The position numbers were made by a program, and so were the translations under genes. 64,000 bases of DNA from a virus. Lineage: Duplodnaviria > Caudoviricetes. Positions 11,678-57,698 of this stretch are shown piece by piece. The notes below the pieces were generated by a model. The model was not told the origin of the DNA, searched no databases, and saw nothing but the letters and a program-made list of their open reading frames with translations. Numbering within the stretch: the stretch's first letter is position 1; every line of letters begins with the position of its first letter. The DNA lies in IMG/VR virus record IMGVR_UViG_3300043410_001300, positions 2-64,001 of that record; one strand, 5' to 3'.

Positions 11678-11684
11678 ATACACT

Positions 11685-43209: not shown

Positions 43210-43601
43210 ATCAGGACTTAACCTCATTAACACCCCTACAACAGCAAGAGTTTATAAACTTAATGCTAGCCAACATACCACCGCCACCACCACCACTAGA
43301 GTACAGAGTGTACTATGATGAACACGGAAAGATACTTACATACACTACAGAAGACCTACCGGGTGACTACTTAGTAATTACCAGAGATGAGTACAATATC
43401 GCCAGACATGATGCCATTGTGCTAGATGGGGTCCTAATCTACACTCACCTTAAACGCCATGTATTTAAATTAGAACCAGACAGAAATAATACCTCCTCAC
43501 GGCGTACTAGTAAATATGACATTAGTATTCTAGCTGATCCCGATGACAGCGAAGATGAATGCCGTTATTACAGAGTACAAGCCAATGAAATCACAAGATG
43601 A
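43206..43601 (+). CDS. Hypothetical protein
   Basis: 131-aa ORF, translationally coupled, poly-Pro stretch. Confidence 0.55.
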   Translation: MNQDLTSLTPLQQQEFINLMLANIPPPPPPLEYRVYYDEHGKILTYTTEDLPGDYLVITRDEYNIARHDAIVLDGVLIYTHLKRHVFKLEPDRNNTSSRRTSKYDISILADPDDSEDECRYYRVQANEITR

Positions 43602-44496
43602 AGTCTTAGAAGTCTTAGATATTGATCAGTTAGACCTGATCTATCTATCCTACGATGAGCCACAGAAGGAAGACTTCTGGTTAGCAATCCAAAACATGGT
43701 ACCATGGGCCAAGCGGGTAGATGGTGTTCGAGGTAGTGACGCTGCTCATAAAGCGGCTGCCGCAGCTAGTGATACTGAGAGATTTATTCTAGTAGATGGT
43801 GATAATATGCTAGATGAAACATTCTTAGACCAATCATTAACTATTACCCACGAGAATAAAGATGCTCAATTCCGTTGGCGAGCCAGAAATTACATCAACG
43901 GATTGTATTATGGCAATGGTGGATTATCTAGTTGGACCAAGACCTTTGTCAATAACATGCGTACTCATGAAGCTAGCGATGGTAACCATAAAACCAACAT
44001 CGAGTTTTGTTTTGACCCACTGTACTGGCCTATGCACAATTGCTACTCTACTACCTACCCTAACTACACGCCCAAGCAAGCATGGCGAGCAGGGTTCCGT
44101 GAAGGAGTTAAGATGTGTAATCGTGATGGCCTAATGCCCACCAACCTACAATCGTTCACTCACCACGTATGGCCTAATAACCTACGCAATCTACACATAT
44201 GGCAAACAGTAGGCCGCGATGTAGAGAATGGCTTCTGGGCAATTCTTGGCGCTCGCTTAGGCACACACTATCTAATGTTACGAGACTGGGATTATACCTC
44301 AGTCCAAGACTTCGATGAACTAGATAGGCTATGGGCACTGCATCAACACGATGACGAACTAGTAGCCCGACAAGTAGCTGCCGACCTTAACCGAGCACTT
44401 AATCTCAATATTGTGGAGCTAGACAGTATAGGCAGCAGGTTCTACAAAGACTATGGAACAAAGTGGACAAACACTGATATTATGGACAGAGAATGA
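43585..44496 (+). CDS. Glycosyltransferase-like protein (DGD / WRxxFRE family, copy 1)
   Basis: DLIYLSYDEP...RVDGVRG...AH...FILVDGDN...AWRAGFREGVK; GT-A-like DxD; start set at MKSQDE. Confidence 0.55.
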   Translation: MKSQDEVLEVLDIDQLDLIYLSYDEPQKEDFWLAIQNMVPWAKRVDGVRGSDAAHKAAAAASDTERFILVDGDNMLDETFLDQSLTITHENKDAQFRWRARNYINGLYYGNGGLSSWTKTFVNNMRTHEASDGNHKTNIEFCFDPLYWPMHNCYSTTYPNYTPKQAWRAGFREGVKMCNRDGLMPTNLQSFTHHVWPNNLRNLHIWQTVGRDVENGFWAILGARLGTHYLMLRDWDYTSVQDFDELDRLWALHQHDDELVARQVAADLNRALNLNIVELDSIGSRFYKDYGTKWTNTDIMDRE

Positions 44497-45857
44497 AATC
44501 ATTAGATCAAGTCGCCCAACAAGTTAACCAGGTTAGCCCATCATTCTGCGCTGCTAAATGGAAGCAAGTAACTATTCATCTCCAGAATGGTCATACTCAT
44601 TCGTGCCATCACCCTGATACCCACTTAGTGCCACTCTCTGAGATTAAGATGAACCCAGGAGCTCTGCATAATACTCAGCACAAAAAAGAACTCCGTAAGC
44701 AGATGTTAGAGGGTGTTCGTCCATCTGAATGTGATTACTGCTGGCGCGTAGAAGACAGTGGCACTAATCAGCACTCCGACCGTATTCGTAAGAGTGCTAC
44801 TCAATGGGCACTACCATATATCCAAGATATCGTCTCCAAGCCATGGGACGATAATGTAGACCCATCGTATGTAGAAGTATCCTTCTCAAGTGTATGTAAC
44901 TTTAAATGCAGCTACTGTGCTCCACACATCTCATCTAAGTGGATGGAGGAGATTGAGCAATATGGTGAGTATCCAACGTCATCTAAGTTCAATGGGCTCC
45001 AATGGATTAAAGAAGTTGGCAAGATGCCTCGACCTAATCGTGAAGATAATCCGTATGTAGAGGCATTCTGGAAGTGGTGGCCAACAATGTATACCAGTTT
45101 ACAACAGTTCAGAATTACTGGTGGTGAGCCACTCTTAGCTAAAGATACATTTAAGGTACTAGACTATATTATCGCTAATCCTAACCCTAATCTAGAAGTC
45201 AGTATCAATAGTAATCTATGCGTTCCGCCTGAACTATTTGATCGCTTTGTGGATAAATTAAAGAATATTACTGAGAATAGATTACTTAAAAAGATACAGG
45301 TCTTCACGTCCTGTGAAGCATGGGGTTCAGGAGCAGAATACATCAGACATGGCATGGATTACCAACAATGGTTAGCTAATGTCAATCGTCTATTCCTTGA
45401 GGTGCCCAACATCTATGTAACTGTTATGAGTACTTACAATCTGCTCAGTCTACCTAGTTACACCAGATTCCTAGAAGATATCTTAGCTATCAAGCAAGCT
45501 AACAATAGAACCCATCGTAGTGGTAATATGTGGTTAGATATCCCATACTTACGATACCCTACCCATCAAGCAGTGTTTATTGCGGATCCGACAATGTTAC
45601 ATTACATAGAAGAGAGTATCCAATTCATGGAGAATAACTCTAATCATCATGGCGAACGAGGCTTCCACCCTGCCGAGATAGATGGCCTAAAGCGCACCAG
45701 AGATGTACTCCTACAATGTAGGGAGGATGAGTACACCACTGTTAATCGACGTGACTTTATCATCTTTGTGGATGAGCATGACCGCCGCCGCGGTACTAGC
45801 TTCTTAGCTACATTCCCCGAGTTCGAGCATACATACCGGCTATGGTCCCAGCTATAA
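44493..45857 (+). CDS. Radical SAM protein with N-terminal Twitch/SPASM-like Cys cluster
   Basis: CNFKCSYC motif, TGGEPLL, N-terminal C..SCHH...CDYCW. Confidence 0.85.
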   Translation: MKSLDQVAQQVNQVSPSFCAAKWKQVTIHLQNGHTHSCHHPDTHLVPLSEIKMNPGALHNTQHKKELRKQMLEGVRPSECDYCWRVEDSGTNQHSDRIRKSATQWALPYIQDIVSKPWDDNVDPSYVEVSFSSVCNFKCSYCAPHISSKWMEEIEQYGEYPTSSKFNGLQWIKEVGKMPRPNREDNPYVEAFWKWWPTMYTSLQQFRITGGEPLLAKDTFKVLDYIIANPNPNLEVSINSNLCVPPELFDRFVDKLKNITENRLLKKIQVFTSCEAWGSGAEYIRHGMDYQQWLANVNRLFLEVPNIYVTVMSTYNLLSLPSYTRFLEDILAIKQANNRTHRSGNMWLDIPYLRYPTHQAVFIADPTMLHYIEESIQFMENNSNHHGERGFHPAEIDGLKRTRDVLLQCREDEYTTVNRRDFIIFVDEHDRRRGTSFLATFPEFEHTYRLWSQL

Positions 45858-45945
45858 TAGTCAAGGTCCTCCTCTCCACTATTATTATATCTCCATAGCC
45901 CGCCAGGGCTCCTCCTCCACCGTACTCTAACACTACTAACCTAAT

Positions 45946-46419
45946 ATGAAACTAATATCCCATCGTGGCAACTTAACAGGCCCCCAACCACATCTAGAAA
46001 ATACCCAAGAACAAATTCTCTACGCTATCTCACAAGGATTCGATGTAGAGATAGACGTATGGTATATCGATGGTAGCTTATTCTTAGGCCATGATGGCCC
46101 CGAACACCCTATCGCACCAGAATTCCTCGAACGAGATGAACTATGGTGTCATGCTAAAAATTTAGGAGCACTCCAATACCTCTTAAATAATAACATACAT
46201 TGTTTCTGGCATGAAGGTGACCAGCGTACACTTACTAGCCGTGGCTATATATGGACCTATCCTGGTAAAGACACTGTGGCTGAAAGTGTCATAGTAGAAT
46301 TAACTTCTACACTACCAACTATCACAGAACAAATAACAGGAGTATGTGGAGATTATGTCGCAAACTGGCGAAAAGAAGATAGCGTTATGCTTCTCGGGGC
46401 AACCAAGAACATGGCGTAA
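45946..46419 (+). CDS. GDPD/PI-PLC-like phosphodiesterase
   Basis: ISHRGN...EN...GFDVEIDVW...LGHD. Confidence 0.75.
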   Translation: MKLISHRGNLTGPQPHLENTQEQILYAISQGFDVEIDVWYIDGSLFLGHDGPEHPIAPEFLERDELWCHAKNLGALQYLLNNNIHCFWHEGDQRTLTSRGYIWTYPGKDTVAESVIVELTSTLPTITEQITGVCGDYVANWRKEDSVMLLGATKNMA

Positions 46420-47110
46420 GTGTGCTCAATCATGGCGTGATAACTTACTTCGTGCTAATACAGATGTATTCTGTCACCTATGGACGGCTAATACTCTACC
46501 CAACGCTATTGCTGGTGGTCAACCTAATATTGAGCCTATACTCCAGTGGGAGATAGATGAGTTATTTGACCTCCTGCGTCCAGTGGATTATATCATTGAA
46601 GAGCCACGTGAATTCACCCCAATGAACCCTGGTCAAGCCTTAACTAATAGTAACTACTTATCCCAGTTCTATGGCGTCCATCGTGCCGCTACCCTTAAAA
46701 AGGAGTGGGAGATTAAGCATGAGTTCAGATACGGTGGTGCTGTTAGAATGCGCTATGATACCTTCCTTGGCGCGGAGACGCATTCTAAGTTTAAAGTAGA
46801 CTACGACAGTATGATGAATGGTATACATATGGGCTGGGATCACGAGACGAAACAGGCCAGAATAGGCGACATTATGTGGCACAGTGATAGTCGTACATAC
46901 GATATCATAGCAGACTTCTGGTTAAACAGTGGTACTATTAGTGGTAGTAGATTTGGTGGTGATGTGCCGCCTGAGCGTATATTCTTCCACTACTTAAAGA
47001 AGAATGGTGTTAAGATTACGCCGCATCACTGGAAGGCGCAACTAATGAGATATGATAGTGAGCGTAGCTTTAGCAAAGTGGAGGATCCCCATGGATTTGA
47101 AACGTGGTAA
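46355..47110 (+). CDS. Putative glycan-transferase-like protein (IALCxSGxxR family, copy 1)
   Basis: KIALCFSGQPR...DVFCHLW...SQFYG...VRMRYD; this family is commonly seen in polysaccharide loci. Confidence 0.5.
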   Translation: MSQTGEKKIALCFSGQPRTWRKCAQSWRDNLLRANTDVFCHLWTANTLPNAIAGGQPNIEPILQWEIDELFDLLRPVDYIIEEPREFTPMNPGQALTNSNYLSQFYGVHRAATLKKEWEIKHEFRYGGAVRMRYDTFLGAETHSKFKVDYDSMMNGIHMGWDHETKQARIGDIMWHSDSRTYDIIADFWLNSGTISGSRFGGDVPPERIFFHYLKKNGVKITPHHWKAQLMRYDSERSFSKVEDPHGFETW

Positions 47111-47837
47111 GGTAGCTATTTGTTTAAGTGGATTAGTACGTACTGGCGTAAGAACTAAGGCACAGTTTGATAGAGTATTTGGTCATCTAGGAGCCGACTT
47201 ATTCTATCATACATGGACAACAGATCATACTCCTGAGGTTACTAACTTATATCAGCCAACTGATTACCTGGTCCAGGAGCCACTCCAAGGTGATCAAGGT
47301 TCATTTGGTAACATGTTATACAGCATCATGATGGCAAATCGTCTTAAGCGCCAGCACGAGGAGCGCCATAACTTTCGATATGACCTAGTGATTAAAGCTA
47401 GATTTGATCTAGTATATAACCCTGGTGCTAGATTTGTGGAGCGGATTGAGCCTAGAACAGTGTATTCTACGGGCGGCAACTGTGGTCTTAACCCTACCGA
47501 CTATGAGACACATGGGATTAGTGATGTCCTATTCTGGGGTGATTCCGAATCAATGGACATCGTATGTGATACTTATATGTACTACCGGCACTGGGCTCTA
47601 GAACTAGATCGATTACTGCGGGATGGTATGGTGTTTGATCACCATGATATCTATCTTAGCCCAGGCACACTAATGATGAATTTAGGTGCGCGGCATAATA
47701 TACACTTTGTAAAACATGCTAGTAGTATCAGAGAGATACCCTGGCGGTTGAATGCCACGCATCTAGACCCCGATACCCAATACCAACAAATTAAGGAGAT
47801 ATACAATAATGGCCACAAGACTAGTAGTAGCAGGTGA
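47091..47837 (+). CDS. Putative glycan-transferase-like protein (IALCxSGxxR family, copy 2)
   Basis: KVAICLSGLVR...DLFYHTW...MLYSI...YDLVIKARFD; GGAGG RBS. Confidence 0.5.
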   Translation: MDLKRGKVAICLSGLVRTGVRTKAQFDRVFGHLGADLFYHTWTTDHTPEVTNLYQPTDYLVQEPLQGDQGSFGNMLYSIMMANRLKRQHEERHNFRYDLVIKARFDLVYNPGARFVERIEPRTVYSTGGNCGLNPTDYETHGISDVLFWGDSESMDIVCDTYMYYRHWALELDRLLRDGMVFDHHDIYLSPGTLMMNLGARHNIHFVKHASSIREIPWRLNATHLDPDTQYQQIKEIYNNGHKTSSSR

Positions 47838-48615
47838 TTCCTGGACATACGGTAGTGAGATCAGAGACCCTAAGCTCACCGAAGACGTTAAAGACTGGGA
47901 TCAACCCAATGATGCCTACAGGCTACCTAGAATTTGGCCTACCAAACTAGGCGCTCTCATGGGTTCTGATACCGAAGTAATTAATCTGAGCTACCCTGCG
48001 GCATCTAATGACCGCATAGTCAGACACTTAACAGGATGGCTAACACAGGAGTACTTATATCCCGGTCGAGATACTAGTGACTTATTCGTAGTAGTAGGTC
48101 TAACTTCACCTGAACGTAAGGACTTCTACTACAAAGACGAGAGCTTACAGAACTGGATCACTATCTGGCCAATGTGGGATCATAGTTATGCACAACCACC
48201 ACTCCGTGAGTTTGGTAAACTATATGCTACCCATATGTGGAACGAGGAGGAGTATGTGCACCGTTATATTCAGCAGGTGTTCTACCTACAAACCCTATTT
48301 AAACAGTATGGTATCAAGCACCTGTTCTTTCAAGCGTTCTATCAGCATCAAACTATGCATATTAAAGACTGGCGAGATGACCCGTATAACAGACATTATA
48401 ATGGCCAACCCGATCGTCCACTATGGGATATGATTGACCCGGTTAGATTTATGAACAAAAATGACTCCAATCATAGCTTCCACCACTATATCACTAGCAG
48501 AGACACTAGCCCACATAAGCAAGTTAGTATAGTGGGCATGCATCCGTCAGAGACTGGCCATACCTGGTGGGCCGAACGTCTTCACCAATATTGTGGAGAT
48601 AATAATCTATGGTAA
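47809..48615 (+). CDS. SGNH/GDSL hydrolase-fold protein (copy 1)
   Basis: GDSWTYG, ASNDRI, C-terminal HPSETGH. Confidence 0.7.
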   Translation: MATRLVVAGDSWTYGSEIRDPKLTEDVKDWDQPNDAYRLPRIWPTKLGALMGSDTEVINLSYPAASNDRIVRHLTGWLTQEYLYPGRDTSDLFVVVGLTSPERKDFYYKDESLQNWITIWPMWDHSYAQPPLREFGKLYATHMWNEEEYVHRYIQQVFYLQTLFKQYGIKHLFFQAFYQHQTMHIKDWRDDPYNRHYNGQPDRPLWDMIDPVRFMNKNDSNHSFHHYITSRDTSPHKQVSIVGMHPSETGHTWWAERLHQYCGDNNLW

Positions 48616-49400
48616 GTCAACCAGTAACCCATCTAGCAGTATGCGGCGACAGCTTTGGCGTAGGCGCAGGTCTACCGTATGACAGATGCTATGAAGACAA
48701 CTTTACGGGCCGAGTAGCCGAACACTTCAATCTACCTCAGAAGGTATATGCCCGTAGTGGTTGCTGTAACTTTACTATCTTACTACAGGTGCGTAAGATT
48801 ATCGAGCAGGTCAAACAAGATCCCACATATCGCCCATTGGTTGTAATTACTACTACATTTCACGAGCGCCTGATATTTCCAGTCGATGGTAGTACTGACT
48901 ATCGAATGCCAGACTTATCACAAGTAGAGTACATGAACTACCCACCATACAGTGATATTAGTCCTAGCGAATCTAGGCCACTCGAATTCAGTATCGAGCA
49001 TGAACCCACACTACTCACTGAGACTGTTAGTAACATAGATCAGTATCTTCGTGGTAATATCAAGTGGGCAGATGGCTTATTCCATCGCGTAACACCCAAT
49101 AAGTTCGAGGCTATTAAGTCCTACATTACTGAACTATTCGATACCGGCGTCAAGCAACAGTGGGATAACTCCCTGTTCATTACTATGCACTACCTATTAG
49201 CTAAGCATGATATACCCCACGTTATCATGGGACACTACTTACATGATCTCCAAGGCCAACCAGAATACATGCAACATGATTGGGGCCACTGGTGTAAACA
49301 TTACCCAGACAACATGGGCAGTGGACACTGTAATGAGGAAGGTAATAGACTAGTGGGAGAGGCACTCGTCAAACACATCGAGGACAACAGTATATTATGA
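48609..49400 (+). CDS. SGNH/GDSL hydrolase-fold protein (copy 2)
   Basis: GDSFGVG, SGCCN, C-terminal GHCNEEGN. Confidence 0.65.
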   Translation: MVSQPVTHLAVCGDSFGVGAGLPYDRCYEDNFTGRVAEHFNLPQKVYARSGCCNFTILLQVRKIIEQVKQDPTYRPLVVITTTFHERLIFPVDGSTDYRMPDLSQVEYMNYPPYSDISPSESRPLEFSIEHEPTLLTETVSNIDQYLRGNIKWADGLFHRVTPNKFEAIKSYITELFDTGVKQQWDNSLFITMHYLLAKHDIPHVIMGHYLHDLQGQPEYMQHDWGHWCKHYPDNMGSGHCNEEGNRLVGEALVKHIEDNSIL

Positions 49401-50092
49401 GGGTATTATACGCTAACGGAGATAGTTGGACCTTCGGCCAAGAGATACCGTCCACGCACCCTACCTCCCAATGTCACACCGATCAATACTACGGAAGCTG
49501 GCCGTTCAAATTAGCCTCCCTACTGGGCGCGGCGTGTGTCAATGAGGGCGCTGGCGCTGGCAGTAATGATAGAATATTCAGGAAGACTACTGAGTATATC
49601 AATGAATGGGTGGCAACCTGCCGCAACCCCCAGGACCTCACCATTGTAGTAGGCTGGACCACACCTGAACGAGCAGAACTAGAGGCCAATGGCGTATATA
49701 CTAGAATAAACATTAATAATATCATTACTAAGTATGGCGAGGATGCCGACTACGAGCGCCAGCAATTAGAAGAGTATAGAGACAGTTACTACCGGGTCTT
49801 AGACCTCGAGATGGCAGCGGTCAGACAGATTAGATATATGATGACACTTCGTACACTAACCGCCGCCCTAGGTATTCGTTACTGGGACTTTCAAGCAATC
49901 GGTGCCCACCCACACCAGCTCCAAGCACTAGCTAACCGACACTATGGTCATACAATGGACAATTACTATGGGACTACATGGCACAATTACTGTCAACTCC
50001 ACGGCCAACCACTACACACTCATGGCCATCCCACCACCGAAGCCCACCATCATTGGGCGTCCTTACTCCACGACTGGATCAGCCATGAATAA
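49397..50092 (+). CDS. SGNH/GDSL hydrolase-fold protein (copy 3)
   Basis: GDSWTFG, GSNDRI, HPTTEAH. Confidence 0.7.
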   Translation: MRVLYANGDSWTFGQEIPSTHPTSQCHTDQYYGSWPFKLASLLGAACVNEGAGAGSNDRIFRKTTEYINEWVATCRNPQDLTIVVGWTTPERAELEANGVYTRININNIITKYGEDADYERQQLEEYRDSYYRVLDLEMAAVRQIRYMMTLRTLTAALGIRYWDFQAIGAHPHQLQALANRHYGHTMDNYYGTTWHNYCQLHGQPLHTHGHPTTEAHHHWASLLHDWISHE

Positions 50093-50855
50093 AACCGTCA
50101 ATATCATCATGGCTCTGGGTGGTGAGGGATCCAGATTTGCCTCCCAGGGCTACGAACTACCTAAGTATCTACTAGCATATGGCGGCTCTACTATGTTATA
50201 TCATTCCTTAGCATCCCTACGCATATCAGGTAATGTATACTTTATCGCTAGACAGGAGCACTTAGACCGTTACCCACAACTCCAACCACTGTTAGATGCC
50301 CTAGGTACCACCATCGTTGCACCACATCTGACCAGAGGAGCAGCAGAAACCCTACTCCTAGCCGAACCACATATACAGGACCTATCCTTACCCATGATTA
50401 GTATCAATTGTGACCAGATGATCAAGTGGAATCCGCAACCATTCTTAGATAAACTGGCCACTAATCCACACACCTCGTACATTGTTACCTATAGGGACAC
50501 TTCACCTAAGTGTTCGTATGTCCTATGTGAAACTCCTGCATGCAATAGTTTAGATAGTACCAAGGTCATTGAGGTGCGTGAGAAACAAGTAATCTCCACG
50601 CATGCCACCGTTGGAATCTATCATTGGAGTAGTACTCAACTGTTCTTTAGGTGTGCCCAGGAGTATATTAGCACCACACCGCTCCAACAATGCGATGGTG
50701 GAGAGTATTATGTAGCACCGGTTTACAATGTGGCCATTGGCCAGGGGCAATCTGTAGAGCGATATAGCATAGAAGACAACGGTGGACAATTCTGGCCAGT
50801 AGGCACACCCCAAGATTTGAACAGTTATATACTAGAGACAGGAGATTTTATATGA
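50085..50855 (+). CDS. Sugar-phosphate nucleotidyltransferase-like protein
   Basis: ALGGEGSRF...PK, TRGAAET, INCD, EK..IS..ATVGIY, GEYYVAPVYN, GTPQDL; start set at MNKTV. Confidence 0.8.
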   Translation: MNKTVNIIMALGGEGSRFASQGYELPKYLLAYGGSTMLYHSLASLRISGNVYFIARQEHLDRYPQLQPLLDALGTTIVAPHLTRGAAETLLLAEPHIQDLSLPMISINCDQMIKWNPQPFLDKLATNPHTSYIVTYRDTSPKCSYVLCETPACNSLDSTKVIEVREKQVISTHATVGIYHWSSTQLFFRCAQEYISTTPLQQCDGGEYYVAPVYNVAIGQGQSVERYSIEDNGGQFWPVGTPQDLNSYILETGDFI

Positions 50856-51184
50856 AACACCACCGCTTAGAAGATTTCTACCGTGGTTGGATAGTGGGTA
50901 AGTTCGAGCCATCATTGCTCCAAGCTGATTTCGAAGTAGGCATTGCCCATCACCACGCCGGCGAACCACACGGAGACCACTTTCATAAACTGTCCACCGA
51001 GATTAACGTGGTGATTAGTGGTACCGTCAAGATTAACGATAGGGTGTTTAACAGTGGCGACATATTCGTCCTAGAGCCCTGGGAAGTGTCACAAGCCGAG
51101 TTTATCACTGATTGCGTGATTGTGATAGTGCGTGATCGGAGTATTCCAGGTGATAAATTCGAATTCAGCATTCGTGGCGAATAA
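50852..51184 (+). CDS. Cupin-fold protein (possible sugar epimerase/isomerase)
   Basis: RGWIVGKFEP, HFHK..TEIN...SG...GDIF. Confidence 0.7.
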   Translation: MKHHRLEDFYRGWIVGKFEPSLLQADFEVGIAHHHAGEPHGDHFHKLSTEINVVISGTVKINDRVFNSGDIFVLEPWEVSQAEFITDCVIVIVRDRSIPGDKFEFSIRGE

Positions 51185-51294
51185 TTGGGCCTTTGTAGGC
51201 CTATCGTGGTATATCAGTGCCTGGTGAGCCTCTGGAGACATTATTTTTCTCCCTACTCCCTTCAAGTGCGTTAGAAATACTTTTTGCTCCCACC

Positions 51295-51329
51295 ACCGTT
51301 AATTCGCTAATATTCGGCTATTTAACGGT
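51295..51329. repeat. Inverted repeat in the 234-bp intergenic gap
   Basis: ACCGTTAA (51295-51302) and TTAACGGT (51322-51329), flanked by a C-rich left arm and G-rich right arm. Confidence 0.6.
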
Positions 51330-51418
51330 ATTTTATCCTGAATAAATATGGAGTGGTTCGTCTGCGGTTGAGGTGGTGAATAATATCTTCTAGGTGGCAC
51401 CACATAGTAAATAACCAC

Positions 51419-52543
51419 ATGAATATTTACCTACCTACCGTACCAGCCGGTCATATTGCTGTTAAATTTGGGATTACTTCCTCTACTACCTTAGATGAGG
51501 CTGCTCGTGGCATTGCTATTGGGCAGTCTATTGGTAATCCTGGTGCTCGTGTGGAGCGTTGGGAGACTAGTCATCTAATTGATACCCATTGTGCTAAGAT
51601 TATTGGCAGTCGAGAGGACTTATTATCTAGACACGAGGGTGATGTTGTTATTGCTTTCCCCCTTATTAATATTAACTGGAGGGAGGATGGCCTATCTCAG
51701 TTATTATGTACTATAATGGGTGGTCAGTGTGATATTGATATTATAGAACGGTGCTGGGTAGTAGATATTGATCTCGATTTAGTACCTAGATTAACTCCAC
51801 GCTATGGTTTGAGTGGCTTGCGTGAGTTAACTGGTCGTTATGATCGTCCATTATTGGGTTGTATTATTAAGCCTAAGATTGGTTTATCGGCCGGTGATTA
51901 TGGTACCATTGTGGAGGAAATGGTTAGAGGTGGTGCTGATATTATTAAAGAGGATGAAATACTAGCTAATCCGGTATTTTGTAGTATGGAGGAGCGCTTA
52001 TCTATTGTTAGAGAGATTATTGGTACTAGAAAGATTGTTTACTTGGCTACTATTAATGCGGATGCAGATAGATTATTAGACAAGGCTAGAATGGTAGCTA
52101 GGAGTGGAATTCGTGGAGTACATTTAAATGTATGGAGCGGATTAGGTAGTTATGGGGCTGTTCGTAGATTAGGTCTAGATATTGCGCTGCATTATCAAAA
52201 GTCTGGTGATCGGGCGTGGAGTGATAGGAATAATAAGTATAGAATTACCTGGTGGGTACTATGTAAATTAGCTGCCTGGAGCGGCGTAGATACTATTCAT
52301 GCTGGTATGTGGGGTGGTTACTTATCAGATGACCCTGTGGAATTGGCGGAGATTATGCGGATGTTGACCGGTTATAATGTAGTGCCGGCATTGTCGTGTG
52401 GTATGAATGCCGAATTAATTCCCAAGGTGACAGATAGATTTGGTGTAGATTATATGGCCAATGTAGGAGCTGCTTGTCATTCGCATCCTCTTGGCGTGGA
52501 GGCAGGAGTTAGAGAATTACGCAGGGCTATCGATGGTAGTTAA
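51419..52543 (+). CDS. RuBisCO-like protein (form IV RLP)
   Basis: PRYGLSGLR...RPLLGCIIKPKIGLS, GGADIIKEDE, DTIHAG, PALSCGM, HSHPLGVEAG. Confidence 0.88.
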   Translation: MNIYLPTVPAGHIAVKFGITSSTTLDEAARGIAIGQSIGNPGARVERWETSHLIDTHCAKIIGSREDLLSRHEGDVVIAFPLININWREDGLSQLLCTIMGGQCDIDIIERCWVVDIDLDLVPRLTPRYGLSGLRELTGRYDRPLLGCIIKPKIGLSAGDYGTIVEEMVRGGADIIKEDEILANPVFCSMEERLSIVREIIGTRKIVYLATINADADRLLDKARMVARSGIRGVHLNVWSGLGSYGAVRRLGLDIALHYQKSGDRAWSDRNNKYRITWWVLCKLAAWSGVDTIHAGMWGGYLSDDPVELAEIMRMLTGYNVVPALSCGMNAELIPKVTDRFGVDYMANVGAACHSHPLGVEAGVRELRRAIDGS

Positions 52544-53261
52544 ATTATGCGGACATAGTGGCGCTGAAGTAGAATTAATAGATGGTAGGGTCCATAAAAG
52601 CGGTCGCGGAGTTATTCGTAATTACGCCAGAATGACTTCCCTAGGTAATTTAATACCACAACCCCGCATTATTGATTATAGCGACAGCCTTGTCCTAGAA
52701 TATATCGCGGGCGATAATATTGCTGATTGGCTAGGTAATAATCAACCACATCAATTAATTAAATTTATTCAGAGTAATATTGATATTCTGGGTGAAGTAA
52801 TTATCGATCCATATAAGGATTATTTGCCGGTGTATGAGGCTAGATTGAATTCTGCCTTATATTTACCTACCACTATTGGAAATATTATTGATGATCTACC
52901 TAGATATCTACCACAAACCCAATATCATGGTGATTTTACATTTGATAATATTATTGCTGGTAGTAGTGGATTTGTCTTAATCGACGCAGTAGACACTGAC
53001 CTAGATAATATCTGGTTTGATTTAGCTAAATTGCGACAGGATGTAGATTGTGGATGGTTTGTGCGTAATCGTGGTGGAGTCACTGATGATCTTGCCATTA
53101 AATTAAGATTGATTAGCGGTGAATTATCTAGGAAATATCGACATTATTCTAATAGGAGCATGGCAATATTAGCGCTAGGCAGAGTATGGAACTATTCTAC
53201 ACCCGAGGAGCAAGAGTGGATAAGTACTAAGATGGATATGTTATGGAGGACACCATGTTGA
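52533..53261 (+). CDS. APH/choline-kinase-like phosphotransferase
   Basis: GHSGAEV, HGDFTFDNI, LIDA, DLAKLRQD; start set at MVVKL. Confidence 0.75.
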   Translation: MVVKLCGHSGAEVELIDGRVHKSGRGVIRNYARMTSLGNLIPQPRIIDYSDSLVLEYIAGDNIADWLGNNQPHQLIKFIQSNIDILGEVIIDPYKDYLPVYEARLNSALYLPTTIGNIIDDLPRYLPQTQYHGDFTFDNIIAGSSGFVLIDAVDTDLDNIWFDLAKLRQDVDCGWFVRNRGGVTDDLAIKLRLISGELSRKYRHYSNRSMAILALGRVWNYSTPEEQEWISTKMDMLWRTPC

Positions 53262-53359
53262 AAAAGATTTATTATGCCTTATTTGGCAAGATTATTCGTG
53301 AGATTAAATATCGCCGTCGGTTAAAAGAATTGCGTAAGCGAGACCCATTTATCTATTAA
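53255..53359 (+). CDS. Small basic peptide (34 aa) ending RKRDPFIY
   Basis: Not in the ORF track. MLKKIYYALFGKIIREIKYRRRLKELRKRDPFIY; GGAGGA RBS; fills the gap before the carbamoyltransferase. Confidence 0.7.
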   Translation: MLKKIYYALFGKIIREIKYRRRLKELRKRDPFIY

Positions 53360-53362
53360 AAT

Positions 53363-54826
53363 ATGAATTATGTAGGAATTAGCTGTGGCTATCATGACGC
53401 GGCACTAACTGTTATAGGCAGTACTGGTAATATATTATTCGCTGGACACGCAGAGCGATACGGTGATAATAAACATACGCCTAATTTAAATATGGGTATT
53501 ATTGATGATGCCCGTAAGTATATTACTGATGAGATAGAAGTACATTATTACGAGCGTCCGCTGGTTAAATATATGCGTAGATTATGGGCAGGTGAGCGTC
53601 CAGTATTATCTAGTATGAGTGCTAAAAATATTATAGGTGATATATTAATAGCAGAATTAGGCGTTGACCGAGGGTGTAAAATACATACTCATAATCATCA
53701 TCTCGCTCATGCGGCGGCGGGGTTTCAGACCTCGCCATATGATAACGCCACTGTTGTTGTTATTGATGCTATCGGTGAGTTTGAGACTATTACTATATGG
53801 AAGGCCAAATATGTCGAAGGTAAAGCAAAATATAAAAAACTTTATACACAAAATTACCCAAATTCCATCGGACTCTTTTATACTGGAATTACTCAGCGCG
53901 TTGGCCTACGTCCATTAGATGAAGAGTATATTTTAATGGGCATGGCAGCGTATGGCAAACCAATATATGTAGAGGAGATGAGAGCTAAATTGGATGAGAA
54001 TTTACATATTGGTGTAGGTGATGATTTCTTACCAGATGCCGATCATTATGATTTAGCCGCTAGTGCTCAGGTATTAGTGGAAGAGTTAATCATGGATATT
54101 ATTCGTAAGGCCAAGCAATTAGGCACTAGTAGTAATCTGGTATATGGCGGCGGCGTAGCTCTTAATTGTTTAGCAAATAGACGGTTAGGTGAATATTACA
54201 AAAATGTATGGATACTACCTAACCCTGGTGATGCGGGTAGTAGTTTAGGTGCGGCCGCATTAGGCTATGGCGGTCCGATTAAATTCGATAATGCTTATCT
54301 TGGTCATAATATCCCAGGCGAATATCCAGTCAGTCGATTAATCGATGAGTTAATTACTAATAAGATTGTTGGTGTGGCTAGCGGCAGAGCAGAGTTTGGA
54401 CCACGAGCACTGGGTAATAGATCATTATTAGCTGACCCTAGAGGTCCTGAGATTAAAGAACTAGTGAATAATATTAAACGACGACAGCAATTCAGGCCAT
54501 TTGCGCCAGTTATTCTAGAAGAATTAGCTGATAGTTATTTTGATATGTCGGGCGATGGCGTTGATAGTAGATATATGCAGCGAGTGGTTCGTTGTATACA
54601 TCCCGAATTATTCCCTGCCATTATTCATAGAGACGGCACCAGCAGAGTACAAACAGTACCTAATGATGGTAGTGGAATAAGGCGATTACTTGAAGCATGG
54701 TACAAGGAGACAGGCTGTCCTATGTTATTAAATACATCGCTGAATATCAGGGGTGAGCCCATGGTTAATAATCGTCAGGACGCTGATAGATTTGAGGAGC
54801 TATATGACATAAAGGTGTGTAGTTAA
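53363..54826 (+). CDS. O-carbamoyltransferase (NodU/CmcH/TobZ family)
   Basis: HDAA, ERY, HHLAHAA, DAIGE, MGMAAYG, GGVALNC, GDAGSSLG, EFGPRALGNRS, FRPFAP, LNTSLN. Confidence 0.92.
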   Translation: MNYVGISCGYHDAALTVIGSTGNILFAGHAERYGDNKHTPNLNMGIIDDARKYITDEIEVHYYERPLVKYMRRLWAGERPVLSSMSAKNIIGDILIAELGVDRGCKIHTHNHHLAHAAAGFQTSPYDNATVVVIDAIGEFETITIWKAKYVEGKAKYKKLYTQNYPNSIGLFYTGITQRVGLRPLDEEYILMGMAAYGKPIYVEEMRAKLDENLHIGVGDDFLPDADHYDLAASAQVLVEELIMDIIRKAKQLGTSSNLVYGGGVALNCLANRRLGEYYKNVWILPNPGDAGSSLGAAALGYGGPIKFDNAYLGHNIPGEYPVSRLIDELITNKIVGVASGRAEFGPRALGNRSLLADPRGPEIKELVNNIKRRQQFRPFAPVILEELADSYFDMSGDGVDSRYMQRVVRCIHPELFPAIIHRDGTSRVQTVPNDGSGIRRLLEAWYKETGCPMLLNTSLNIRGEPMVNNRQDADRFEELYDIKVCS

Positions 54827-56026: not shown

Positions 56027-56045
56027 TATTTATGAGGTGTAAATA
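56027..56045. promoter_or_regulatory. Back-to-back divergent late promoters
   Basis: TATTTA at 56027-56032 (TAAATA on minus) and TAAATA at 56040-56045, each 5 nt from an ATG (56021 and 56051). Confidence 0.7.
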
Positions 56046-56050
56046 TGGGT

Positions 56051-57142
56051 ATGATAGAAGATGATGAAGAAGAAGATTACTGGGAAGTGCCAGATAACAT
56101 AGATACAACTGACTTTGATTTTACATGGCGACCTGATGTATACGAAGAAGAATACATTCATCAGTTCGGCACACAGTGGCAAAAAACTGGTGGTCCACGA
56201 TTAGTAGTAGCTGGCGCTACGAAGATTAAGTATCAGGACTTTCAACGAGCACGAGCGCTACCCGATATGTCTAAGTGGAAGTTGCCTAGAATGACTGGTA
56301 TTGATCGTATTGATTTTGATTACAGTTGGCATCCAGATGATACAGATGAGATGTTCAATTATGTGTTTGGCGACCAACAGGGAACTGCCGAAGAGAGTAA
56401 GATCATTCAGTACACTAGGCAACATGGAGCAGAGATTAAGTTTGTTGATAAGCCAGTAGCAAATGTGGTATACACGCCACTAGATATTATCTTTCTAAGC
56501 AACGGTGAGACTGACGAACAACTACGATATGATAGATTGTGTAAGGTAGCCAGCAGGCCAGTAAAGTGGATAAAAGGCATCAATGGTAGAGAAAATGCTC
56601 TAAGAGAGGCAGCAAGGCAATCATCAACTAAGTGGTTCTTTCTATTTCCTGGTAAATTATGGGCTGATGAGAACTTCGACTTTGACTTTCAACCAATACG
56701 ATATCACGATATCAAACACTATATCTTCTATGCTAAGAACCCACTCAATGGTTTAGAGTACGGACATCAAGCAGCGGTGTGCTATAATCAGCGATTAGTG
56801 CTAGAGACACTGGATTATGGACTAGACTTTACTATGAGTAAAGCACATGACATTATACCAGTACTCAGTGGTATTGCCCAATACAATAGCGACATTACTA
56901 TGACTTGGCGAACTGCATTTAGAGAAGTGATCAAACTCAAAGCAGAAGATAGCGACGAGAGTAGAAAGCGACTACAAATATGGCTGACTGAGGCACGAGG
57001 TCAGCATTGTGAATGGAGTATTATCGGCGCACAGGATGGTATTGCTTACTACAATTCTGTCAACGGTGAACATAGTGAATTAATGAAGTCTTTCTCATGG
57101 CAGTGGTTAGACGAATACTTTACAAGCCGATACTCTGTCTAA
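56051..57142 (+). CDS. Glycosyltransferase-like protein (WRxxFRE family, copy 2) with N-terminal repeated FDxxWxPD domains
   Basis: FDFTWRPD and FDYSWHPD repeats, then DIIFLSNGE...GING...TWRTAFREVIKL. Confidence 0.55.
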   Translation: MIEDDEEEDYWEVPDNIDTTDFDFTWRPDVYEEEYIHQFGTQWQKTGGPRLVVAGATKIKYQDFQRARALPDMSKWKLPRMTGIDRIDFDYSWHPDDTDEMFNYVFGDQQGTAEESKIIQYTRQHGAEIKFVDKPVANVVYTPLDIIFLSNGETDEQLRYDRLCKVASRPVKWIKGINGRENALREAARQSSTKWFFLFPGKLWADENFDFDFQPIRYHDIKHYIFYAKNPLNGLEYGHQAAVCYNQRLVLETLDYGLDFTMSKAHDIIPVLSGIAQYNSDITMTWRTAFREVIKLKAEDSDESRKRLQIWLTEARGQHCEWSIIGAQDGIAYYNSVNGEHSELMKSFSWQWLDEYFTSRYSV

Positions 57143-57698
57143 TTGGGCGGAATGCTTGTAATGCTCTATTGTACTCATTGATGTTTAAATTCCAGATAGT
57201 TTGTGGAGTGTAGTAATACTCTTCCTCTCGCACAAACTCAACAATACCTTGCTTCGATAATAACTCCAGGGCTCGGTGAGTTCGAGACATCTTACCACTA
57301 GCATCATGACTACCGTGTGACGTGGTGATGTATAACTCATCATAACCATTCGCAACACCCCATCCAATTTGCATAGGCAACAGAATACTAAACGGCACAC
57401 TGTTCATATGTGTCTTACTCATACCAGGAATCAATCTCTGATATCTAGGTAATGTGGCACTACGAAACAAACATCGTAGTATTCTGTGTTCGTCGTCATA
57501 GCTATGACATCCACTGATACTAGCAATCTCATCATTGACTATTAGCGCCCAGTACTGAGGGTCACTAGGTAGGTCATGACCATCAATTAGCTTCAATGCT
57601 TCCATAGTGCCATTATTAGTGTATCCCACACCAGCACACTCTCTATTGAAAGCATCGAGTAGTTTATTGTGATTTTGGGATATTTTTACAATATTCAT
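57120..57698 (-). CDS. Hypothetical protein, possibly GNAT-like acyltransferase
   Basis: 192 aa; EIASISGC...RCLFRSATLP...GYDELYIT loosely resembles a GNAT fold; near an adenylation enzyme. Confidence 0.35.
   Translation of the reverse strand: MNIVKISQNHNKLLDAFNRECAGVGYTNNGTMEALKLIDGHDLPSDPQYWALIVNDEIASISGCHSYDDEHRILRCLFRSATLPRYQRLIPGMSKTHMNSVPFSILLPMQIGWGVANGYDELYITTSHGSHDASGKMSRTHRALELLSKQGIVEFVREEEYYYTPQTIWNLNINEYNRALQAFRPIRQSIGL

Follow-up and report, generated by a model that had tools for sequence, protein, structure and literature searches.

Gene content of the region

The window, i.e. the whole stretch of 64 000 nt that was analysed, comes from a jumbo T4-like phage, of whose genome it represents a fragment; its source record was classed as viral (completeness 18 %), and the T4-like context is supported by SbcCD-like, gp55-like late sigma factor and baseplate genes. 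The original prediction placed a pathway for an unusual activated sugar within the window, and all the genes that it named were confirmed in position, on the + strand, and in their family identifications. The features are listed below (RLP, RuBisCO-like protein; NTase, nucleotidyltransferase).

45946..46419, +, minimal GDPD-fold protein, 157 aa (invariant residues, model fold, phrog_34507)
46346..47110, +, DUF7796 paralog 1, 'IALCFSGQPR' (alignment, GT-A fold; probable start ATG 46355)
47052..47837, +, DUF7796 paralog 2, 'VAICLSGLVR' (family alignment and clustering; probable start ATG 47091)
47809..48615, +, DUF6071/GDSL-like protein 1 (Pfam DUF6071, E 9e-14)
48609..49400, +, GDS-motif protein, putative SGNH (N-terminal GDS block)
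49397..50092, +, DUF6071/GDSL-like protein 3 (Pfam DUF6071, E 3.5e-12)
50085..50855, +, sugar-phosphate NTase (PF00483, PDB 4evw, phrog_3980)
50852..51184, +, small metal-binding cupin, 110 aa (HxH..E..G motif, phrog_24762)
51185..51418, no strand, cupin–RLP spacer, 234 nt (missing from most related loci)
51419..52543, +, RLP, 374 aa, phage 'form IV-like' clade (Pfam, NCBIfam, 2cwx alignment, clade-invariant motifs)
52533..53261, +, APH/choline-kinase-like kinase (weak APH match; lineage-specific)
53363..54826, +, NodU/CmcH-type carbamoyltransferase (Carbam_trans_N, E 2e-30; Carbam_trans_C, E 3.6e-48)

Genes overlapped or abutted throughout from the GDPD-fold gene to the cupin gene, the RLP and kinase genes likewise overlapped, and no terminator-like sites were found anywhere in 45700–53500. 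The NTase ORF spans 49944–50855, with its start placed at 50085 by family alignment, and its end shares 4 nt with the cupin ATG (50852), in line with the coupling of the two genes noted earlier. The kinase ORF runs from a TTG at 52491; from the alternative ATG at 52533 it shares 11 nt with the RLP gene, whose stop codon (52541–52543) it had been described as overlapping. This gene arrangement is far beyond chance expectation. The cupin–RLP spacer gave no match in an Rfam search (RNA fold z = −1.9).

Family and fold assignments

The RLP was assigned to its clade from profile matches and motifs. It matched Pfam RuBisCO_large (E 1.6e-34, 120 bits, cut-off 30.1), and its closest solved relative was the form III RuBisCO 2cwx (E 5e-29). 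Mapping onto 2cwx and comparison across 22 relatives revealed that the active-site elements KPK, IKEDE and H(x)G were kept, whereas Q-K takes the place of the H-R of the HRAMH motif (the block reading QKSGDK), Y that of the loop-6 K, and GGQxD that of GNVFG. Positions corresponding to H294, R295, K334 and N123, in what we take to be the active-site numbering and residue roles, were substituted in 22/22 aligned clade members. Judged from these residues, the enzyme is predicted to retain the capacity for enolisation and to lack that for carboxylation. Its scores lay well under the cut-offs of the form III (144.6 vs 497), MtnW (103.6 vs 409 and 76.8 vs 513.6) and OiaX (92.5 vs 700) models. A homologue with 45 % identity was identified in Beckwithbacteria in our own scan (L039).

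The NTase matched PF00483 (31.3 bits, cut-off 21.2), PDB 4evw (E 1.5e-15; E 1e-37 with the family profile) and phrog_3980 (E 1.4e-37). GDP-mannose pyrophosphorylases were among the closest solved NTases after 4evw, and the family profile matched GDP-mannose pyrophosphorylase, RmlA and HddC with E values of 1e-13 to 1e-9, compared with about 4e-5 for LicC and IspD; some relatives matched IspD and NTP_transf_3 models. The cupin matched phrog_24762 (E 1.5e-30), and its metal motif HxH...E...G was invariant in 21/21 aligned relatives, 13 of which matched Cupin_7 and seven Cupin_2. Neither the window copy nor the family members matched the MannoseP_isomer Pfam family.

No Pfam match was obtained for the window copy of the GDPD-fold protein, which matched phrog_34507 (E 1.3e-24). 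The family has a core of approximately 145 aa, in which H6, R7, E18, N19, E35, D37, H49 and D50 (HR..EN..ExD..GHD) were invariant in 20/20 relatives, and its profile matched the GDPD 7e0v in PDB (E 1.3e-3). GDPDs were the best fold matches of the model (pLDDT 92; Z 8.4–10.6, rmsd 3.1–3.6 Å, 139–149 residues aligned), with 1v8e as the top Foldseek match (E 4e-3). Pfam DUF7796 was recognized in 10 of the 23 members of the 'IALCxSGxxR' family. The DUF7796 model (pLDDT 81) adopted a GT-A glycosyltransferase fold (Foldseek E 4.5e-6; VIA matches with Z 11–11.9 over 190–213 residues), which agrees with the earlier description of these proteins as transferase-like; the Atlas entry for paralog 1 begins at residue 4.

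The first DUF6071/GDSL-like protein scored under the cut-off for Lipase_GDSL (E 0.0022). A Pfam search with the middle GDS-motif protein gave no match, and its alignment to its neighbour was limited to the N-terminal GDS block. The kinase was also under the Pfam APH cut-off (20.5 bits vs 23.2) and did not match MtnK; its translation contains HGDxxxxN and IDxxD motifs.

Co-occurrence and distribution of the cassette

Neighbourhoods within 8 kb of the RLP gene were compared for 30 viral loci (the window and 29 others) and 47 cellular loci. With HMMs built from members of these same families, and with many loci taken from partly redundant MAGs, SAGs or IMG/VR fragments with crude ORF calls, the viral set contained NTase in 27, cupin in 29, GDPD in 23 and DUF7796 in 21 loci, and the cellular set NTase in 43, cupin in 14, GDPD in 28, DUF7796 in 13 and LicD in four. 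The reciprocal count started from the cupin: viral cupin loci numbered at least 496, and among the best 80 of them an RLP was present in 78 and an NTase in 78. Co-occurrence elsewhere, which had been proposed as a test of the pathway, was therefore strongly evident in both viral and cellular loci. The cupin was missing from 33/47 cellular loci and is therefore not essential to the RLP step.

Natural fusion proteins connect all five families. One (P0135) comprises RLP (residues 1–391), NTase (398–639) and cupin (711–810), and another (P0020) GDPD, NTase and cupin; GDPD–DUF7796 fusions were found in 15 proteins, NTase–GDPD–HAD–NTase fusions in at least 11, and a HAD–NTase architecture in 13/14 longer NTase relatives. 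In two further proteins (P0027 and P0037) the GDPD domain is fused to a ribulose-phosphate 3-epimerase (218.2 bits, equivalog cut-off 212.6). Fusions and adjacency thus tie the GDPD-like gene to the NTase itself, instead of its merely heading the transferase genes.

The conserved core of the cassette is the RLP, a dedicated NTase and the small metal cupin, and the GDPD-fold enzyme and GT-A-fold DUF7796 transferases are usually its companions. Two components of the original gene set proved to be lineage-specific: the three putative SGNH genes were found in 8/29 loci, and counterparts of the kinase in none of the 76 other loci (0/29 viral, 0/47 cellular). The carbamoyltransferase, a context gene, was found in 7/29 related loci.

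Hundreds of phages carry this gene set, as do SAR11, tiny archaea and tiny bacteria, and some Legionella; DPANN genomes are among the cellular carriers. Its neighbourhoods are glycan islands with GT2, GT8, GT10, GT17, GT25 and GT61 genes, together with FkbM and O-methyltransferases, DegT, SDR dehydratases, NeuB, Wzz, bacterial sugar transferase and GtrA; cellular surface-glycan loci with the cassette carried Wzz, an initiating sugar transferase, GtrA and GT9.

Around the NTase–GDPD core, the RLP and a β-phosphoglucomutase-family HAD were nearly mutually exclusive (Fisher p = 6e-6): of 72 GDPD-centred loci holding an NTase, one had both, 12 the RLP only, 45 the HAD only and 14 neither. The HAD scored 60–107 bits against NCBIfam β-phosphoglucomutase models, under the cut-offs of 153–189, and could be a phosphatase instead of a mutase. 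A PMM-family HAD followed the RLP in loci L008–L013. In the NTase tree, RLP-linked and HAD-linked NTases separated with three label changes among 204 labelled tips; the two cassettes may therefore yield different products, as opposed to a simple replacement of HAD by RLP. In Legionellaceae, a divergently oriented LicD gene (E 6e-44 and 3e-43 in Legionella loci) adjoined the RLP–NTase pair and occupied the place of the GDPD in 4/4 loci (by HMM; four related loci only), all without GDPD.

Proposed function and alternatives

On balance we favour, by a modest preponderance of the evidence, an RLP-dependent feeder that supplies a nucleotide-activated rare sugar or sugar-phosphate for glycan decoration, as a cassette within a phage glycan-building island. 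Roles beyond family and fold are read here from gene context. The RLP, with its Mg2+/carbamyl-lysine enolisation machinery apparently kept and its carboxylation/cleavage residues gone, would enolise a common keto-sugar phosphate and thereby isomerise or epimerise it. The cupin may then perform an additional isomerisation of the aldose–ketose type, since the order NTase then cupin is that of the bifunctional mannose-6-P isomerase/GDP-mannose pyrophosphorylases. The NTase, placed in its family from sequence, would convert the product to a nucleotide-activated sugar, which DUF7796 (a glycosyltransferase by its modelled fold) and other island glycosyltransferases would install. The GDPD-fold enzyme presumably catalyses a phosphodiester step linked to the NTase product, possibly sugar- or alditol-phosphate transfer, the role that LicD would have in the Legionellaceae loci; against this, the GDPD enzymes known to us are hydrolases and not transferases. 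RLP and cupin appear to stand in for the HAD that feeds the sister NTase–GDPD cassettes.

The kinase would be a lineage-specific entry step in this phage. It had been predicted to act after the RLP; to our knowledge, however, every substrate of a characterised RuBisCO-superfamily enzyme is already phosphorylated, and the kinase, where present, therefore more likely precedes the RLP. Of the pathway as originally drawn, the families, their co-occurrence and the glycosyltransferase fold stand, whereas the kinase and GDS trio as conserved parts, the position of the kinase and the role of the GDPD are unsupported or revised.

The GDP-mannose route, in which a type II mannose-6-P isomerase (a cupin) is fused to GDP-mannose pyrophosphorylase and is accompanied by phosphomannomutase, is a close parallel. 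The cassette resembles it in the C-terminal cupin following the NTase in P0135 and P0020, in the PMM-family HAD of L008–L013 and in the proximity of its NTase to GDP-mannose pyrophosphorylases among solved structures; it differs in that its cupin lies outside the MannoseP_isomer family and in that the GDP-mannose route has nothing corresponding to the RLP.

An unlikely but serious alternative is a phosphodiester route of the CDP-alcohol type, with precedents in CDP-xylulose, CDP-6-fructose and CDP-ribitol. Here the RLP would make or reshape a keto-pentose, keto-hexose or alditol phosphate, the NTase would activate its primary phosphate, and a phosphotransferase (LicD in Legionellaceae, the GDPD-fold enzyme in other carriers) would move the sugar-phosphate onto the glycan with release of NMP. 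The LicD genes of the GDPD-less Legionellaceae loci, the fusion or proximity of GDPD to NTases, the two epimerase fusions and the IspD/NTP_transf_3 matches all point in this direction. Against it, the NTase profile has its far closer matches among NTases of sugar-1-phosphates, with LicC and IspD more distant, HAD partners of the β-PGM/PMM type are better suited to conversion of sugar-6-P to sugar-1-P, and GDPD fusions to DUF7796 suggest glycosyl transfer; moreover, we know of no GDPD-family transferase. The Lic pathway itself (LicA kinase, LicC cytidylyltransferase, LicD phosphotransferase) has parallels in the APH-like kinase and small NTase of the window, as well as in the true LicD of Legionellaceae, but lacks RLP, cupin and GDPD.

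Salvage of SAM by-products, in which kinase, RLP and cupin would recycle 5-methylthioribose or 5-deoxyribose from radical-SAM enzymes of the island, is considerably less probable. This reading is modelled on bacterial methionine salvage (MtnK, MtnW, MtnD), in which the Bacillus RLP occurs with the APH-type MtnK, and the Rhodospirillum MTA-isoprenoid shunt, with an RLP isomerase and a cupin methylsulfurylase; both share with the cassette an RLP enolase/isomerase acting on a keto-sugar 1-phosphate beside a cupin and/or APH-fold kinase. Two twitch radical-SAM genes (N_Twi_rSAM, E 1e-99) lie in the window, some related loci also carry radical-SAM genes, and in L013 the cupin–RLP pair is flanked by a PNP_UDP_1 phosphorylase and a phosphoribosyltransferase. 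The kinase, however, is unconserved and unlike MtnK, the RLP falls well short of MtnW, and none of the scanned neighbours was recognized as an MtnA-type isomerase. Salvage has no need of an NTase, which here is the obligate partner and in one case is even fused to the RLP, and the cassette is also present in glycan loci that lack radical-SAM genes.

Decoration of phage DNA (base hypermodification) instead of a glycan seems more improbable still: T4-like phages do glycosylate their DNA, and the island also encodes PP-loop ATPases, an AMP-binding enzyme and hydroxylases, but neither a hydroxymethylase nor a base-modifying gene was observed adjoining the cassette, which is carried by SAR11, DPANN and Legionella genomes and by cellular surface-glycan loci. 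A bona fide carboxylating, form III-like RuBisCO that would fix CO2 or salvage AMP in the course of infection can practically be dismissed, since, despite form III enzymes being the best sequence matches, the four substituted positions and the form III score argue against it, and AMP phosphorylase, ribose-1,5-bisphosphate isomerase and phosphoribulokinase were not seen in the scanned contexts. The RuBisCO-superfamily enzymes of D-apiose and acid-sugar catabolism (OiaX and relatives) belong to the superfamily of the cassette RLP and have branched or keto sugar phosphates as substrates, but are catabolic, whereas the cassette context is biosynthetic.

Relation to published phage gene clusters

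Literature searches found no published account of an RLP–NTase–cupin–GDPD cassette, in line with the earlier remark that the gene set matched no characterised pathway. Divergent phage-encoded 'form IV-like' RLPs, from IMG/VR myovirus-like contigs and grouping with Beckwithbacteria, were described by Jaffe et al. (2019, Mol Biol Evol, PMC6389311), and the family of the window RLP likewise has its Beckwithbacteria homologue. In the available part of that paper their function is left open, and the words 'nucleotidyl', 'glycosyl', 'cupin' and 'polysaccharide' are absent from the main text. The phage RLP clade has thus been known since 2019, and the cassette itself appears to be unreported. In jumbo phages, cupin isomerases, sugar kinases, NTases, glycosyltransferases and carbamoyltransferases are encoded together in clusters that were proposed to change the host surface polysaccharide (Iyer et al., 2021, Viruses, PMC7824862); the available text contains 'rubisco' and 'ribulose' zero times, and no description of the RLP–NTase–cupin–GDPD cassette was found in it. 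The jumbo phage of the window carries cupin, kinase, NTase, glycosyltransferase-fold and carbamoyltransferase genes as in those clusters, as far as they are described in that part of the text, and differs from them in that its cassette includes an RLP.

Setting of the cassette in the window

The window, an IMG/VR virus record of 64 kb with a CheckV completeness of 18%, encodes SbcCD-like nucleases, a gp55-like late sigma factor (3460-4368) and baseplate wedge and hub proteins, together with a 6212-aa ORF among fibre-like genes that is presumably a giant fibre or baseplate-attached protein; because of this gene content it was assigned as a fragment of a jumbo T4-like myovirus. Beyond about 41.6 kb, and up to the window end, nearly all genes encode sugar- or small-molecule-modifying enzymes, among them a carbamoyltransferase, an Asp/Arg-hydroxylase-like protein, an AMP-binding enzyme and two PP-loop ATPases. 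The features with coordinates are as follows.

15865-34503, + strand: giant ORF (6212 aa), between the baseplate wedge genes and the fibre-like genes
43543-44496, 56045-57142 and 60553-61251, + strand: three paralogous proteins, no Pfam match, 'DGDN' motif in two
44493-45857, + strand: twitch-domain radical-SAM protein (N_Twi_rSAM, E 1e-99), same island
51185-51418, no strand: non-coding cupin-RLP spacer, 234 nt
51419-52543: RuBisCO-like protein (RLP), a clear RuBisCO large-chain homologue (Pfam E 1.6e-34; 2cwx E 5e-29)
57664-59043, - strand: second twitch-domain radical-SAM protein, same island

The three paralogues, which have relatives in 12 of 29 related viral loci, may be further glycosyltransferases. 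All the genes named in the original prediction were found in the window. A GDPD-like gene heads an overlapping run of two DUF7796 paralogues (the 'IALCxSGxxR' genes) and three GDS-motif genes (previously called SGNH). The sugar-phosphate nucleotidyltransferase (NTase), whose start was placed at 50085 by family alignment, overlaps the preceding gene, and its end overlaps the cupin start by 4 nt. The kinase ORF overlaps the RLP, with an ATG at 52533, 8 nt ahead of the RLP stop codon. Cupin and RLP genes abut or overlap in most related loci; the spacer between them in the window folded marginally better than shuffles (z = -1.9) and had no Rfam match at E up to 1 when riboswitches and other RNAs were sought. 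Sigma-70-like sites were at chance level (22 against 23.1 expected), and 45700-53500 contained no terminator-like site. Despite the gp55-like sigma factor, the T4-type late promoter TATAAATA occurred 0 times in the window, compared with 6.4 +/- 2.5 expected from shuffles. No DNA similar to the region (megablast) and no RLP match (tblastn) was found in the annotated phage collection.

Residues kept and replaced in the RLP

RuBisCO-like proteins are a classic case of an enzyme scaffold gaining new chemistry. The RLP of the window belongs to PF00016 (120 bits against a gathering cut-off of 30.1, residues 132-372). Comparison of 22 clade members showed that KPKxG (KPKIG), IKEDE, the histidine of 'IHxG', PALSCGM and NVGGA are kept. 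IKEDE and KPKIG are invariant, which leaves in place the KPK motif and, in KxDE, the activator lysine plus Mg2+ ligands. Between them, the kept motifs account for the activator lysine, the Mg2+ ligands, the enolisation lysine and the glycine-rich phosphate site. In the alignment with 2cwx (Pyrococcus RuBisCO), the positions of H294, R295, K334 and N123, which belong to the full RuBisCO catalytic set, read Q, K, Y and Q, and these substitutions are invariant in the 22 members. The H-R of HRAMH has become Q-K (block QKSGDK), the loop-6 lysine tyrosine, and GNVFG GGQxD, all without exception in the clade. Because of this pattern of kept and replaced residues, we read the RLP as a predicted enolising isomerase or epimerase rather than a carboxylase.

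The nearest NCBIfam models were, in order, form III, MtnW and OiaX, all far under their cut-offs. Assignment as a bona fide RuBisCO of forms I-III was rejected (catalytic residues replaced; rubisco_III 144.6 against 497.45), as were MtnW, the 2,3-diketo-5-methylthiopentyl-1-P enolase (equivalog scores 103.6 against 409 and 76.8 against 513.6), and OiaX, the 3-oxo-isoapionate-4-P decarboxylase (92.5 against 700).

Jaffe et al. (2019; PMC6389311) described about 80 'form IV-like' RLPs from phages, together with related sequences from Beckwithbacteria, and left their function open; nucleotidyltransferases, glycosyl enzymes, cupins and polysaccharide do not come up in the main text of that paper. 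The RLP of the window may belong with these sequences: it is phage-borne, with 29 viral relatives, and has a Beckwithbacteria relative at 45% identity. Novel groups of ocean RuBisCO homologues were reported in the text of Yooseph et al. (2007; PMC1821046) with no function assigned, and that of Iyer et al. (2021; PMC7824862) describes jumbo-phage sugar clusters and never names RuBisCO. Full-text literature searches returned no paper that connects RLPs with nucleotidyltransferases, nucleotide sugars, the SAR11 hypervariable region or the glycan genes of Legionella.

Partner proteins

The NTase matched PF00483 (31.3 bits against a gathering cut-off of 21.2), and G13, G15, R17 and F18 of its nucleotide loop G-x-G-x-R-F were invariant in 25 relatives. 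Its family profile matched 4evw, an uncharacterised Vibrio 'NDP-sugar pyrophosphorylase', at 1e-37, followed by GDP-mannose, dTDP-glucose and GDP-heptose enzymes (1e-13 to 1e-9) and by LicC and IspD (about 4e-5). The cupin is a 110-aa metal cupin with an invariant G(x)5HxH(x)3-4E(x)6G motif. Its family matched Cupin_7 in 13 of 21 members and Cupin_2 in seven, the window copy on its own matching Cupin_3 alone at 14.3 bits (cut-off 23.5). No member of the 21 matched MannoseP_isomer (type II mannose-6-P isomerase) at E up to 0.05; the family profile matched 7zvm, a small cupin deposited as 'mannose-6-phosphate isomerase', at 7e-4.

PF03009 (GDPD) was not matched by the window GDPD-like protein and was matched by only two of 20 relatives, at E 0.021. 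The catalytic set HRG..EN..ExD..HD (His/Arg, metal-binding Glu and Asp, second His) was invariant in all 20 and aligned to the motif of 1v8e and 7e0v. With the structural model (pLDDT 92), the top 22 VIA rows, nearly all GDPD/PLD-type entries, had Z of 8.4-10.6, compared with 7.3 or less for generic barrels; 139-149 residues aligned to chains of 218-479 residues. The protein is thus modelled as a shortened GDPD barrel with its catalytic His/Arg/Glu/Asp/His intact.

DUF7796 (PF25072) was matched by 10 of 23 family members (best E 4.7e-6), the first paralogue of the window itself giving no match. The earlier view that the 'IALCxSGxxR' genes are transferase-like is borne out by the DUF7796 model, which is predicted to adopt a GT-A glycosyltransferase fold (254 Foldseek matches at E 1e-3 or below; VIA Z 11-11.9). 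Among the GDS-motif genes, DUF6071 matched two, Lipase_GDSL reached 18.6 against a cut-off of 23.6, and the middle gene had no Pfam match. The kinase carries the APH-type motifs HGDxxxxN and IDxxD and scored 20.5 bits with PF01636 (APH/choline-kinase-like), below the gathering cut-off of 23.2. Its identification as a methylthioribose kinase (MtnK) was rejected, since the MtnK model was not matched and NCBIfam offered only weak Bud32 matches (E up to 0.01). Searched by sequence against the PDB, the cupin alone, the kinase and the DUF7796 profile all yielded nothing useful.

Co-occurrence in viruses and cells

Scanning with the RLP recovered 29 viral loci (40-66% identity) and, with one genome per species, 47 prokaryotic loci, E-values being relative to the candidate stretches. 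The cellular hosts include SAR11/Pelagibacter (one complete chromosome), Patescibacteria including Beckwithbacteria, DPANN archaea, Verrucomicrobia, Turneriella, Azospirillum, three named Legionella species and a Tatlockia MAG. One further RLP locus (L236) came from a giant-virus MAG. By tblastn with the window proteins, the 29 viral loci contained the cupin in 28, the NTase in 26, the GDPD-like protein in 23, the two DUF7796 paralogues in 13 and 15, and each GDS-motif gene in eight. HMM counts are tabulated below. They have several limits: ORFs were called crudely, the HMMs came from the very families being counted, and the source material (IMG/VR contigs, MAGs and SAGs) is fragmentary and redundant. 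Contig ends cut off many of the loci scored as misses, and some of the 'cellular' contigs may be of viral origin.

Table. Families found by HMM within 8 kb of the RLP gene
Loci; n; NTase; cupin; GDPD; DUF7796; LicD
Viral RLP loci, window included; 30; 27; 29; 23; 21; 0
Cellular RLP loci; 47; 43; 14; 28; 13; 4

It had been proposed that the RLP and cupin make a sugar that is phosphorylated by the kinase, activated by the NTase and transferred by the 'IALCxSGxxR' proteins. Recurrence of these families elsewhere is borne out by the RLP and NTase, found together in 27/30 viral and 43/47 cellular loci. Counterparts of the window kinase were found by tblastn in 0/29 viral and 0/47 cellular loci, so that the kinase drops out of the conserved gene set; the proposal stands as to co-occurrence and transferase fold and falls as to the kinase being part of that conserved set.

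A cupin-seeded scan gave at least 496 viral loci. Among the top 80, RLP and NTase were each present in 78; the two lacking the RLP are cut immediately upstream of the cupin. At least 177 viral loci were obtained with the fusion protein P0135 (813 aa), which consists of RLP (1-391), NTase (398-639) and cupin (711-810). In many of the 80 kept, the match covers most of the fusion, which indicates a colinear RLP-NTase-cupin arrangement.

P0135 is one of several natural fusions among longer relatives of the cassette proteins, for which the searches were made. P0020 joins GDPD, NTase and cupin; 15 proteins join GDPD and DUF7796; at least 11, of 1060-1230 aa, read NTase-GDPD-HAD-NTase, HAD being a haloacid-dehalogenase-type protein; and 13 of 14 longer NTase relatives are HAD-NTase proteins of about 450 aa. 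In DPANN loci a full-length GDPD adjoins, or is fused with, a second NTase paralogue. Through these fusions the RLP, the cupin and the GDPD-like protein are each tied directly to the NTase.

RLP and HAD as alternative partners of the NTase-GDPD core

A viral scan seeded with the GDPD-like protein gave 490 loci, the best 80 of which contained the NTase in 72, DUF7796 in 40, the cupin in 25 and the RLP in only 13. Most have, instead of the RLP, a HAD of the beta-phosphoglucomutase family, fused to or beside the NTase; its best NCBIfam match is TIGR02009, under the cut-off.

Table. RLP and HAD in the 72 GDPD-seeded loci with an NTase
RLP; HAD present; HAD absent
Present; 1; 12
Absent; 45; 14

The exclusion is significant if kinship among the loci is ignored (Fisher p = 6e-6). 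In a pool of 216 non-redundant NTase loci, which mixes differently ascertained samples, the HAD was present in 9/160 loci with the RLP compared with 43/56 without it. These counts indicate that the RLP, usually with the cupin, and the HAD are alternative partners of the NTase-GDPD core. When 226 NTase domains were placed on a FastTree tree, the label (RLP or HAD) switched only three times over 204 labelled tips; judged by this, the cassette types form two ancient and distinct lineages, and their products may differ.

Genomic neighbourhoods

In phages and cells alike, the cassette lies in glycan islands with GT2, GT8, GT9, GT10, GT17, GT25, GT61 and WavE genes, FkbM and other O- or C-methyltransferases, DegT aminotransferases, SDR dehydratases/epimerases, NeuB, a formyltransferase, a sulfotransferase, Wzz, an initiating sugar transferase and GtrA. 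Of 118 non-redundant loci, 21 have an O-methyltransferase after the cassette. The closest relatives of the window (L002-L007) have, 3' of the RLP, an APH/fructosamine-kinase-like gene (HGN for HGD) and a dehydroquinate-synthase-like sugar-phosphate cyclase, both absent from the window; this kinase is different from that of the window (BLASTP E 0.73). Also beside the RLP are a eukaryote-type phosphomannomutase in L008-L013, an NTase with a C-terminal HAD in L017 and a cupin fused to a C-methyltransferase in L024. In one phage (L013), a PNP_UDP_1-family phosphorylase and a phosphoribosyltransferase (9099-9653 and 11283-11822) directly flank cupin-RLP, a hint that a nucleoside-derived compound of the ribose-1-P type can enter the pathway.

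Proposed route and alternatives

Given the observed protein families and folds, the kept and lost RLP residues, the tight linkage, the fusions and the glycan-locus setting, we lean towards an RLP-dependent nucleotide-sugar route for glycan building. The RLP would enolise a common keto-sugar phosphate and so isomerise or epimerise it, and the cupin would contribute aldose-ketose isomerisation; NTase-then-cupin is also the domain order of type II PMI-GMP enzymes. The NTase would activate the product, the GDPD-fold enzyme would contribute a phosphodiester step, acting on the NTase product or after it, and the GT-A-fold DUF7796 proteins and other transferases would install the activated sugar. The window kinase is probably a salvage entry, phosphorylating a free sugar ahead of the RLP. 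A more specific version, which we regard as doubtful, is that RLP and cupin turn a central keto-sugar 1-phosphate or bisphosphate straight into an aldose 1-phosphate, the carbonyl being moved and the phosphate kept. If so, the kinase or mutase step of nucleotide-sugar synthesis would be unnecessary, and the mutual exclusion of RLP and HAD at the common NTase-GDPD core would be accounted for.

The main alternative, which we judge fairly unlikely, is a route of the CDP-alcohol type, with the GDPD or LicD transferring a sugar- or alditol-phosphate. LicD lies about 1-3 kb from RLP-NTase, on the opposite strand, in four Legionellaceae loci (L072-L075; Legionella maceachernii, L. nautarum, L. drozanskii and the Tatlockia MAG), from which GDPD and cupin are absent, and it was found within 8 kb of none of the 30 viral RLP genes. 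Salvage of SAM by-products is improbable, modification of DNA by the sugar even more so, and true carboxylation can practically be discounted, all three fitting the data poorly.

In L072-L074 a conserved 328-aa protein of no known family stands beside LicD, and L072 encodes a LigT-type 2H phosphoesterase about 4 kb away.

The cassette thus appears, from its genes and their arrangement, to be a widespread nucleotide-sugar or glycan-precursor system that has recruited a RuBisCO-like enzyme. To our knowledge, every RLP function assigned to date is catabolic or salvage; the direct conversion to an aldose 1-phosphate, if true, would be the first biosynthetic, glycan-building role of the RuBisCO superfamily outside CO2 fixation and salvage, and a new path to rare NDP-sugars, possibly pentofuranoses, in phages, SAR11, CPR/DPANN and some Legionellaceae. 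As the cassette is found in many viruses (the cupin in at least 496 contigs), in SAR11, among the most abundant marine bacteria, and in genome-reduced CPR/DPANN, the sugar may be a widespread surface or virion decoration affecting phage-host recognition. The phage RLP clade now has a testable setting, with an obligate NTase partner, expressible natural fusions and a HAD-type cassette for comparison.

The minimal GDPD-fold domain, fused to NTases, glycosyltransferases, methyltransferases and a ribulose-phosphate epimerase, is a second enzyme worth attention. Further fusion partners of the GDPD are GT61, an APS-kinase-like P-loop kinase and Cof-type HADs. P0027 and P0037 join it to a ribulose-phosphate 3-epimerase, the latter passing its equivalog cut-off; no relative of P0027 was found when its genomic context was sought in viral contigs. 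The C-terminal third of both (residues 360-595) resembles 2H (LigT-like) cyclic phosphodiesterases by language-model features, with a high score, a lead that hints at cyclic-phosphate chemistry. The minimal domain was also seen fused to other domains in P0081, P0083, P0093, P0097 and P0070, whose sources are chytrid fungi (Spizellomyces, Geranomyces), a diatom (Thalassiosira) and a giant-virus MAG (Homavirus).
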